This document shows positions 25,685-28,700 of a DNA stretch of 41,110 nt, piece after piece. Source of the DNA: Escherichia coli. Lineage in GTDB: Bacteria > Pseudomonadota > Gammaproteobacteria > Enterobacterales > Enterobacteriaceae. The translations under genes were made by a program, and so were the position numbers. Each line of letters starts with the position of its first letter. The stretch's first letter is position 1. The stretch lies in assembly GCF_003334315.1 (NCBI RefSeq), contig NZ_QOWR01000045.1; one strand, given 5' to 3'. The notes beneath the pieces are model-generated. The model saw nothing but the letters and a program-made list of their open reading frames with translations, had not been told where the DNA came from and ran no database searches.

Positions 25685-25735
25685 TACGCAGACCGTAGGC
25701 CAGATAAGGTGTTTACGCTGCATCAGGTAACAAGG
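25685..25735. repeat. REP-like palindromic unit
   Basis: GTAGGCCAGATAAGGTGTTTACGCTGCATCAGGTA resembles the REP consensus seen in the BIMEs elsewhere in the window. Confidence 0.4.
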
Positions 25736-26231: not shown

Positions 26232-26621
26232 AGTGTTACTCCTTCCATAAAGTTGTCGATGACTGGCCAGCTAGCGTTTCTTGTGCCGTTACGTCACCCG
26301 CGTCCTGCGAACTACGTGCGCGGGGCTAACCCAGCCGTAAAGATTCAGTGTTAAGACCATCCTTACCTTATAGCGACCCGGATGATCCGTCAATCCGCCT
26401 TGCTTACCCGTTAGATAAACAAATTTTCGACATGAATATATTGATAGTGGTTAACCTTCTGGAAAAAAAACAACCTGATCTCCTACACTATCTATAGAGC
26501 CGCTCGGATGTTGGTCACCACAAAAGCGGTTTCTCCAGGACCTGGTGTTAACTGATTGGCAGCGTATCGGGAGCGGTAGCCCCGGGGTGGAACTCCGCGG
26601 GCAGGTCGCCGGGGAGGAGGT

Positions 26622-26957
26622 ATGATAAGCACCGTCGCATTATTTTGGGCTTTATGTGTCGTTTGCATTGTTAACATGGCGCGCTATTTCTCATCACTAC
26701 GCGCGTTGTTAGTGGTACTGCGTAACTGCGATCCATTGCTCTATCAATATGTTGATGGAGGGGGCTTTTTTACCTCACATGGCCAACCCAACAAACAGGT
26801 GCGTCTCGTTTGGTATATCTATGCCCAACGTTATCGCGATCATCACGATGATGAATTTATTCGCCGCTGTGAGCGGGTGCGTCGGCAGTTTATTCTGACC
26901 AGCGCATTGTGTGGTCTGGTGGTGGTCAGCCTGATTGCATTGATGATTTGGCATTAA
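26622..26957 (+). CDS. uspB: Universal stress protein B (small inner membrane protein)
   Basis: 111-aa ORF starting [47 protein letters not shown]; divergent from uspA. Confidence 0.93.
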
Positions 26958-27027
26958 GCACTTCAGCAATAATAACGCATAAAAAAAGCGGGTCAGTAAA
27001 CTGACCCGCTCGAGACTGATTACAAAC

Positions 27028-27148
27028 GCAAAATTGCCTGATGCGCTACGCTTATCAGGCCTACATAATCTCTGCAATCTATTGAATTTGCATGTTTTTG
27101 TAGGCCGGATAAGGCGTTCACGCCGCATCCGGCATGAACAAAGCGCAC
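27028..27148. repeat. BIME/REP-type palindromic repeat element
   Basis: GCAAAATTGCCTGATGCGCTACGCTTATCAGGCCTAC...TTGAATTTGCA...GTAGGCCGGATAAGGCGTTCACGCCGCATCCGGCA...AAAGCGCAC: two inverted REP units with a linker. Confidence 0.6.
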
Positions 27149-27200
27149 TATGTCACAATCTGAAGCGGGCCAGCTGACCCGCTCGTTTTGGTGCGTACGA

Positions 27201-28700
27201 TTACAGGAACTGCAAGGAGAGCCAGTACAGCCCGCCGGAAAGCAGTACCGCAGCCGGAAGGGTAAACACCCAGGCCATCAGAATGCTGGTCACGGTTTTA
27301 CGCTGTAAGCCGCCACCATCTACCACCATCGTCCCCGCGACAGAAGAGGAGAGTACGTGAGTAGTGGAAACCGGCATCCCGGTATAACTCGCCAGGCCGA
27401 TAGACACTGCCGCCGTCATCTGGGCAGACATCCCCTGAGCGTAGGTCATGCCTTTCTTACCGATTTTCTCACCGATAGTCGTTGCCACACGGCGCCAGCC
27501 AATCATCGTACCGATACCTAACGCCAGCGCGACCGCCATGATGATCCACACCGGTGCATACTCGATGGTGCTAAGCATGTCGGACTTCAGTTTCTTCAAC
27601 AGGCGCTGATCGTCAGCACTCACGCCAGGCATCTTCACCACTTTGTCGATAGTGTCAGAAACGCACAGCATAATGCGGCGCATCTGGCTACGTTGATCAA
27701 GCGACAGCTTGTCGTAGCTTTCCACATCGGTGGTCAACATACCTTTCAGGCGGTTGAGCGCGTTAATGGTATTCGACGGATGGCAGTGGAACTCCGCAGG
27801 TTGCGTTGCGCCAGCTTCCGGAGCCGGTACTAACTGATCAGCACCGGTAGCCTGTTTGAGCAGCGCAGGATGCTGCTCAAAGTAAGCTTCGACGTTGTTG
27901 ATGGCATCACGGGTACGGGTGATTTCGTAGCCAGTGGCATTCATGTTCACCACGAAGCCTGCTGGCGCGACGCCAATCAATACCAACATAACCAGACCAA
28001 TGCCTTTCTGACCATCGTTCGCGCCGTGCGAAAACGCCACGCCGATAGCGGAAAGGATCAGCGCGATACGCGTCCAGAATGGCGGCTTTTTCTTGCCGTC
28101 TTTCTTTTCACGCTCCGCTGGGGTCAGGTGGATACGGGCGCGTTTCTTGGTGCCGCTCCAGTAGCGACGCAGCAAGAAAATCAGACCGCCAGCAAACACC
28201 AGGCCGACAATAGGGGAAACGATCAGAGAACCGAAAATACTTAATACTTTCGGGATATTGAGTGCATCCACCACTGACGTCCCGGTCATCAACGCATTGG
28301 TTAAACCAATCCCGATGATCGCGCCAATCAGCGTATGAGAGCTGGATGCAGGTAAACCAAAGTACCAGGTACCCAGGTTCCAGATAATCGCCGCCAGCAA
28401 CATAGAGAACACCATGGCAAGGCCATGAGACGATCCCATATTAAGCAGCAGATCCGTCGGCAGCATATGCACAATGGCATAGGCAACACTCAGACCACCC
28501 AGCAAAACACCCAAAAAGTTGAACACCGCCGCCATAACCACGGCGAGCTGAGAACGCATCGCGCGGGTATAGATAACGGTTGCCACGGCGTTGGCTGTGT
28601 CATGGAAACCATTGATGGCTTCGTAGAACAGCACAAAAGCCAGTGCAAGCAATAATAACAGCCCGGTATGCAAATCCAGGCCAGCAAACAAATGTAGCAT
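27201..28700 (-). CDS. pitA: Low-affinity inorganic phosphate (metal-phosphate:H+) transporter PitA
   Basis: 499-aa ORF starting [45 protein letters not shown], which carries the PiT family signature. Confidence 0.95.

Follow-up and report, generated by a model that had tools for sequence, protein, structure and literature searches.

A BIME-1 element between uspB and pitA of Escherichia coli is flanked by two copies of a terminator hairpin, a likely insertion scar that recurs across the element family

The convergent genes uspB and pitA of Escherichia coli are separated by a 243-nt spacer in which a BIME lies between two similar hairpins. This arrangement raises the question of whether the hairpin pair records the insertion of the repeat, as a terminator hairpin duplicated on either side of it, or provides a terminator for each of the two genes, possibilities that the original prediction for this DNA had set side by side. 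Knowledge of REP/BIME (REPIN) repeats goes back about forty years, and their route to new sites was still described as unknown in 2012 and 2021. Taken alone, uspB-pitA offers a known element that left a clear insertion scar; what gives the finding its value is that the scar is a family-wide rule bearing on this open question. We analysed a window of 41,110 nt (the whole stretch of DNA under study, from contig NZ_QOWR01000045.1), to which all coordinates refer unless K-12 is named. The following features were located in the spacer and at its borders:

26622-26957, + strand: uspB coding sequence (ORF listing; uspB annotation in matching E. coli records)
26981-26987: A7 tract, read on the - strand as the U7 tail of a predicted terminator for pitA (sequence and terminator scan)
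26987-27010, then CG: left hairpin AGCGGGTCAG-TAAA-CTGACCCGCT (inverted-repeat listing)
26987-27011: left hairpin copy, with its stem at 26987-26996/27001-27010 and its TAAA loop at 26997-27000, plus C 27011
27164-27183, then CG: right hairpin AGCGGGCCAG-CTGACCCGCT (direct- and inverted-repeat listings)
27164-27184: right hairpin copy, with the 4-nt loop absent and a C/A mismatch on the + strand
27185-27189, + strand: GTTTT tail of the uspB-strand terminator (terminator scan; RNA 3' end at 27188)
27201-28700, - strand: pitA coding sequence (ORF listing), its stop codon being TTA at 27201-27203, inside the right 'GATTACA'

Both hairpins are present where they had been predicted, as near-identical sequences AGCGGG(T/C)CAG[TAAA]CTGACCCGCTCG at 26987-27012 and 27164-27185 that abut the BIME on both sides. 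A direct-repeat alignment of the two copies matched 22 of 23 bases, with one 4-nt gap corresponding to the loop, and its score of 13.0 was reached in 0 of 1,000 shuffles of the 243-nt spacer (mean 7.45, maximum 12.5). The copies are direct and not inverted repeats, because the C/A stem mismatch has identical polarity in the left and right copies (K-12 and strain 08_4358). In the window, position 26993 is a T, which turns the C/A mismatch of the left stem into a T-A pair; this is the sole difference between this spacer and that of K-12 MG1655, which has a C there. The GATTACA that had been taken as part of each module does not belong to it. The left GATTACA (27018-27024) lies within a conserved terminus of the repeat element, GAGACTGAT(G/T)ACAAACGC, which recurs at other loci, and GATTACAG also comes directly after the unrelated hairpin of yjbR-uvrA. 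The right one, at 27199-27205, includes the stop codon of pitA and is present in BIME-less alleles too. Since the two have these separate origins, their similarity is a coincidence.

The boundaries of the repeat also needed revision. The BIME had been placed at 27028-27148, whereas the actual element spans 27012-27163 and directly abuts both hairpins:

27012-27163, + strand: complete BIME-1 (RIP/RIB-type), with 5' end GAGACTGATTACAAACGC and 3' end GCGCACTATGTCACAATCTG(A), absent from the short allele
27036-27064, + strand: z1-type REP of 29 nt in iREP orientation, ending in CTAC (sequence)
27065-27099: L linker of 35 nt, with an IHF-like site (sequence)
27100-27134, + strand: y-type REP of 35 nt, starting with GTAG (sequence)

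The final A of the 3' end may be a target base. Both REPs match the published descriptions of z1 (29 nt, CTAC tag) and y (35 nt, GTAG tag) (PMC8266576, PMC3333891), and a further ~24 and ~29 nt on either side of them also belong to BIME-1. The composition (y REP, L linker, inverse z1 REP), the single copy and the location at a transcription-unit 3' end are those of the BIME-1/RIP/RIB elements of E. coli, and the element agrees with published BIME-1 in being ~150 bp long and polymorphic for presence or absence among strains. It forms one unit between the uspB and pitA stop codons and not a tandem array. The element itself is thus ordinary, but the duplicated local hairpin borders and the defined termini GAGACTGATGACAAA...TTTGTCAACAATCTG are absent from the descriptions that we found. 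Across 78 full-length copies the termini read 5' G-AGACTGATGACAAA and TTTGTCAACAATCTG-(A) 3', and they form an imperfect inverted repeat with 12 of 15 positions matching. A search with the insert only retrieved full-length paralogs at entD-fepA and yjbR-uvrA, with 89-93% identity, the same ends and unrelated flanks; genomes without the uspB-pitA BIME-1 carry full-length paralogs at these loci as well. This insert-only search found no donor locus supplying the BIME together with the hairpin, the paralogs differing in their flanks.

Several minor observations concern the repeat sequences of the window. The best IHF-like match in the linker, ATTCAATAGATTG on the - strand at 27075-27087, differs by one mismatch from the consensus WATCAANNNNTTR and is a putative site. 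The Rfam family ES036 (CssrF sRNA) matches 27057-27097 on the - strand with 42.0 bits against a gathering score of 37.6; because this match falls inside the BIME-1 L linker, the 'sRNA' family seems to have been modelled on a repeat-element linker. Matches to the Rfam models of the L20 leader, naRNA4 and the rnk leader lay far under their gathering scores over REP sequence, and were set aside as chance or REP cross-matches. Three more REP-like sequences (GTAGG(C/T)C(G/A)GATAAG...) occur in the window at 15827-15843, 25695-25711 and 40732-40748; the one at 25695 closely follows the uspA stop codon, at a place where an indel distinguishes the window from K-12.

If the hairpins arose by duplication around an inserted repeat, orthologous spacers without the BIME should carry a single hairpin. 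The allele found in the window, hereafter the long allele, is present in 1,941 of 5,426 complete E. coli genomes. All sampled E. coli records outside these 1,941 were exactly 173 bp shorter and had one hairpin; in this short allele, of which 11 examples were inspected in sequence, the spacer reads ...GCATAAAAAAAGCGGGCCAGTAAACTGACCCGCTCGTTTTGG..., with the single hairpin set between A7 and T4 tracts. The long allele equals the short one plus a 151-152-nt BIME-1 and a second hairpin copy (173 bp in total), and its left copy is the single hairpin of the BIME-less allele except for C/T at 26993. The outgroups compared at this locus were Salmonella enterica and Citrobacter koseri. Each has one homologous hairpin beside the uspB stop codon, of the form A6-7-AGCGGG(C/T)CAG-TTTC-CTGACCCGCT, with no BIME-1 at that position and with different REP sequences further on. 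The A7 tract is likewise found in the short allele, Salmonella and C. koseri. Because BIME-less regions have one hairpin and the long allele is the short allele plus BIME-1 and a second hairpin, the arrangement records an insertion, and the comparison favours duplication over independent terminators, in agreement with the first half of the original prediction. These sequence comparisons support an origin of the two hairpins as a target-site duplication, generated by the insertion of BIME-1.

We therefore favour, with a probability of roughly 85%, a history in which a bidirectional terminator shared by uspB and pitA was hit by a BIME-1 insertion that duplicated the whole hairpin and split it into two one-directional terminators. 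In the ancestral state, both genes would have used one intrinsic terminator consisting of A7, a 24-nt GC hairpin and CGTTTT. A 152-bp BIME-1 would then have inserted just 3' of the stem, duplicating the entire hairpin as a 25-26 nt target-site duplication. The right copy would subsequently have lost its 4-nt loop and, in this window, the left copy would have gained the C-to-T change that perfects its stem. The left copy, which retained the A tract, would have become the pitA-strand terminator, and the right copy, which retained the T tract, the uspB-strand terminator. Against the insertion account, the 4-nt deletion in the right copy requires a second event.

The distribution of the alleles allows an opposite polarity, in which the long allele is ancestral in E. 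coli and the short one arose by deletion through the 22-26 nt direct repeats, by slippage or recombination, so that the locus records an excision. Direct repeats of this length promote precise deletion, and the abstract of one earlier paper is said to have described such events as excisions. Moreover, the long allele occurs on both 99.8% and 97.2% identical pitA haplotypes: it was found in the divergent Escherichia sp. MOD1-EC7003, whose pitA is 97.2% identical and which shows the same loop loss, and some short alleles have a pitA haplotype that shares 99.8% identity with that of long alleles. We nevertheless consider an ancestral long allele unlikely. In Salmonella and C. koseri there is a single hairpin at this position, without BIME-1, and the TAAA loop, absent from the right copy of the long allele, is kept in all 11 short alleles inspected, whereas repeated deletions should often have lost it. 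Even under this polarity the origin of the duplication would be unchanged, as an insertion would still be implied by hairpins that abut a mobile element on both sides. Since MOD1-EC7003 carries the long allele together with the loop loss, the insertion favoured here is possibly old, and some short alleles are possibly precise losses; both spread by recombination and later precise loss through the repeats are possible sources of the long/short distribution within Escherichia.

The two hairpins also differ in their capacity for termination. The short allele, with its A tract, GC hairpin and T tract between two stop codons, has the look of a bidirectional intrinsic terminator and is a textbook case of one; the long allele differs in that the two directions are divided between hairpin copies separated by 177 nt. 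For the pitA strand, the left copy offers an 11-pair stem and then U7 (hairpin energy -18.3 kcal/mol). For the uspB (+) strand, the right copy offers a weaker 6-pair stem and then CGUUUU (-9.6 kcal/mol); on the - strand the same copy reaches -13.9 kcal/mol. The Term-seq data of Adams et al. 2021 (supplementary file 1) contain a strong 3' end at K-12 3639154(-), given in both tables listing it, which by coordinate conversion is window position 27188, the third T after the right copy. As this 3' end maps to 27188, uspB transcripts pass the left hairpin and BIME-1 and end at the right copy. For the opposite direction, the left copy with U7 is the predicted pitA terminator, with a 3' end expected at 26981-26986, equivalent to K-12 3639356-3639361 on the + strand; the Term-seq table of Adams et al. 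2021 lists no pitA-strand 3' end at the left hairpin. The idea of one terminator per convergent gene therefore holds in outline, on the uspB side through the mapped end and the geometry of hairpin and U tract, and on the pitA side as a prediction.

The first hairpin met by each polymerase has lost its U tract to the element. Because the left copy kept only the A tract and the right copy only the T tract, each transcript would read through the first hairpin and BIME-1. If the pitA terminator prediction holds, the uspB and pitA mRNAs share about 200 nt of complementary 3' UTR including BIME-1, so that both neighbouring messages would have gained a REP-containing, mutually complementary 3' UTR. 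A selfish insertion can thus leave gene ends working, with a bidirectional terminator split into two one-directional ones. The same Term-seq data list another strong 3' end at K-12 3639733(-), equivalent to window position 26609 (+), 13 nt upstream of the uspB start codon. It sits in the GC-rich uspB leader (GGAGCGGTAGCCCCGGGG...GGTCGCCGGGGAGGAG) and may be a 5'-UTR attenuator or a processing site.

The same signature was then sought across the BIME-1 family. A pattern scan of one genome per species detected 111 BIME-1 copies, in Escherichia albertii, E. coli, E. whittamii, two further Escherichia species and Pseudocitrobacter. Removal of internal array units and orthologous duplicates left 43 independent loci with both ends recognisable, of which 21 show a local 15-29 nt direct repeat that abuts the element on both sides, with one conserved G in between on the left and 0 nt on the right. 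The scores of these 21 repeats are at least 12.5, whereas a null built by pairing left and right flanks from different loci averages 5.4, its 99th percentile being 9.0. All 21 are GC-rich hairpins, with a different sequence at each locus, and regardless of hairpin length the first stem base opens the repeat, which extends 0-3 nt beyond the last stem base (once 10 nt). An A run precedes the left copy in 19 of the 21, and a T run follows the right copy in 14. The remaining 22 loci have no clean long duplication and show decayed hairpin pairs, a one-sided hairpin or flush 4-6 nt repeats; repeats of at least 4 nt occur at 4 of these 22 loci, vs 1.7% of null pairs.

Empty alleles confirm the duplication at loci other than uspB-pitA. 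At rutG-ymdF, a single hairpin in the empty allele contrasts with two in the filled one. The empty allele downstream of zapB has one hairpin, the filled allele being found only in strain SCPM-O-B-8794. At yjbR-uvrA, 88 genomes are filled and the others are 174 bp shorter with a single hairpin. Thus, at four loci (uspB-pitA, rutG-ymdF, zapB-downstream and yjbR-uvrA) a repeat that is flush with both element ends is single in the empty site. A natural filled/empty polymorphism with a clean and unusual signature at many loci gives the question of BIME spread a definite target and cut position. Whole-hairpin duplication is general in the BIME-1 family, and a hairpin-wide scar at about half of the loci examined is a concrete clue to how the repeat spreads.

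The rutG-ymdF hairpin carries BIME-1 in opposite orientations in two E. coli strains (L053 in SCPM-O-B-8794 vs L143 in LH10-b-1). The two elements are only 85.6% identical, about as distant as copies at different loci, which indicates two independent hits on one hairpin. Inversion of one element between its palindromic flanks was considered as a source of the two orientations and ruled out by this low identity. Furthermore, MOD1-EC7003 contains tandem [hairpin-BIME-1]n arrays, the longest having 7 or more units (L116, L098/L099, L105, L106-L108 and L120). In the L116 array the outer hairpins are local, and the inner spacers consist of the hairpin ggcagggttcggtct, which is also found within arrays at other loci.

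These arrays, with their 'foreign' hairpins between BIME-1 units, might suggest that the hairpins are outer inverted repeats of the mobile element and travel with it; a directly repeated palindrome is also an inverted repeat, and the whole uspB-pitA region folds as one long hairpin. We regard this as very improbable, given that the flanking hairpins vary by locus and at four loci agree with the hairpin of the local empty site, that the uspB-pitA hairpin is conserved in genera without BIME-1 here, and that even in arrays the outermost hairpins are the local one (L116). An internal hairpin is possibly co-transferred on occasion inside multi-unit blocks. Still less credible is a two-step origin in which slippage first duplicated the hairpin in tandem and BIME-1 later inserted between the copies. 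Tandem duplication of a palindrome can happen, and nothing more specific speaks for this order; among the sampled records there was no allele with two adjacent hairpins and no BIME, and the same two-step coincidence with exact abutment would be needed at more than 20 loci. Finally, the notion that the hairpins are independent look-alike terminators, which draws on each copy having a U tract for one direction only, can be dismissed in view of the 22 of 23 matching bases, among them a stem mismatch common to both copies and alike in polarity, the one hairpin that serves both directions in BIME-less alleles and outgroups, and the flush duplication of unrelated hairpin sequences at 21 of the 43 loci.

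How a duplication of this kind could arise is a more speculative matter than the insertion at uspB-pitA. Because the duplication spans the palindrome and its length follows that of the palindrome, the cuts appear to be placed by structure and not by a fixed ruler. From the family-wide pattern we infer a geometry in which the target would be cut 0-2 nt outside the palindrome on each strand, at positions set by structure; the element would be joined between the cuts, and gap repair of the single-stranded hairpins would yield the hairpin-element-hairpin order. A symmetric target of this type fits the orientation independence seen at rutG-ymdF. On this basis we suggest tentatively, at somewhat less than even odds, that BIME-1 spreads by an undescribed structure-guided integration in which GC-rich palindromes are cut 0-2 nt outside the stem on both strands and the hairpin is duplicated by gap repair. 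The target, typically an intrinsic terminator, would probably be cut as a cruciform or as paired hairpins, with the 5' ends of the element joined to 3' ends of the target; an HUH enzyme, for example TnpA_REP, would be compatible with this polarity. The flanking hairpins would then be both new targets and direct repeats, which would account for arrays and for precise loss. If true, structure-guided integration would explain BIMEs at operon 3' ends, [hairpin-BIME]n arrays and precise loss.

TnpA_REP is the obvious candidate enzyme because it recognises hairpins; its gene lies outside the window. REPINs and their RAYT (TnpA_REP) resemble the present case in a REP doublet that forms a long hairpin, in being non-autonomous, in low copy-number turnover and in the central role of hairpin recognition. 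Against this candidate, the BIME-1 ends do not lie at the mapped cleavage sites beside REPs. Single-strand transposition of the IS200/IS605 type (Y1), on which the TnpA_REP system is modelled, does not duplicate its target, whereas BIME-1 is flanked by duplications of 15-29 nt and ends ~24-29 nt outside its REPs and not at the mapped CT cleavage sites; both the lack of target duplication and the cleavage adjoining a REP that characterise RAYT/IS200-like elements are thus missing from BIME-1. The duplications made by DDE transposons and MITEs are alike in that a flush direct repeat is present once in the empty site and that the terminal inverted repeats are imperfect, but they have a fixed, enzyme-set length of 2-14 bp, whereas those of BIME-1 (15-29 nt) scale with the target palindrome. 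In CRISPR spacer acquisition, Cas1-Cas2 attaches new DNA to the two edges of a palindromic repeat, one on each strand, after which the whole repeat is duplicated by gap repair; in E. coli, IHF takes part in the reaction. This likeness may serve as an analogy only, since the insert is 152 bp instead of 33 bp and the targets are terminators, and nothing indicates that Cas1-Cas2 acts at BIME-1.

In the NAR 2012 and 2021 papers on TnpA_REP, how the repeats disseminate is given as not known, and integration beside existing REPs is proposed; the REPIN papers and a 2024 mobilome preprint likewise describe the mechanism of spread as not known. One survey reports REP dimers inside palindromes in other phyla, as split halves, which is a different arrangement. 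The literature searched contains no description of a hairpin-wide duplication at a BIME or REPIN, the older BIME papers (Bachellier 1997, Boccard & Prentki 1993, Gilson 1991) lying outside that scope. The number of termini varies widely among E. coli genomes, with 3 to 30 left-end matches to BIME-1 per genome (median 14) and 4 to 40 right-end matches (median 19), a spread that suggests lineage-specific expansion or loss of the element.
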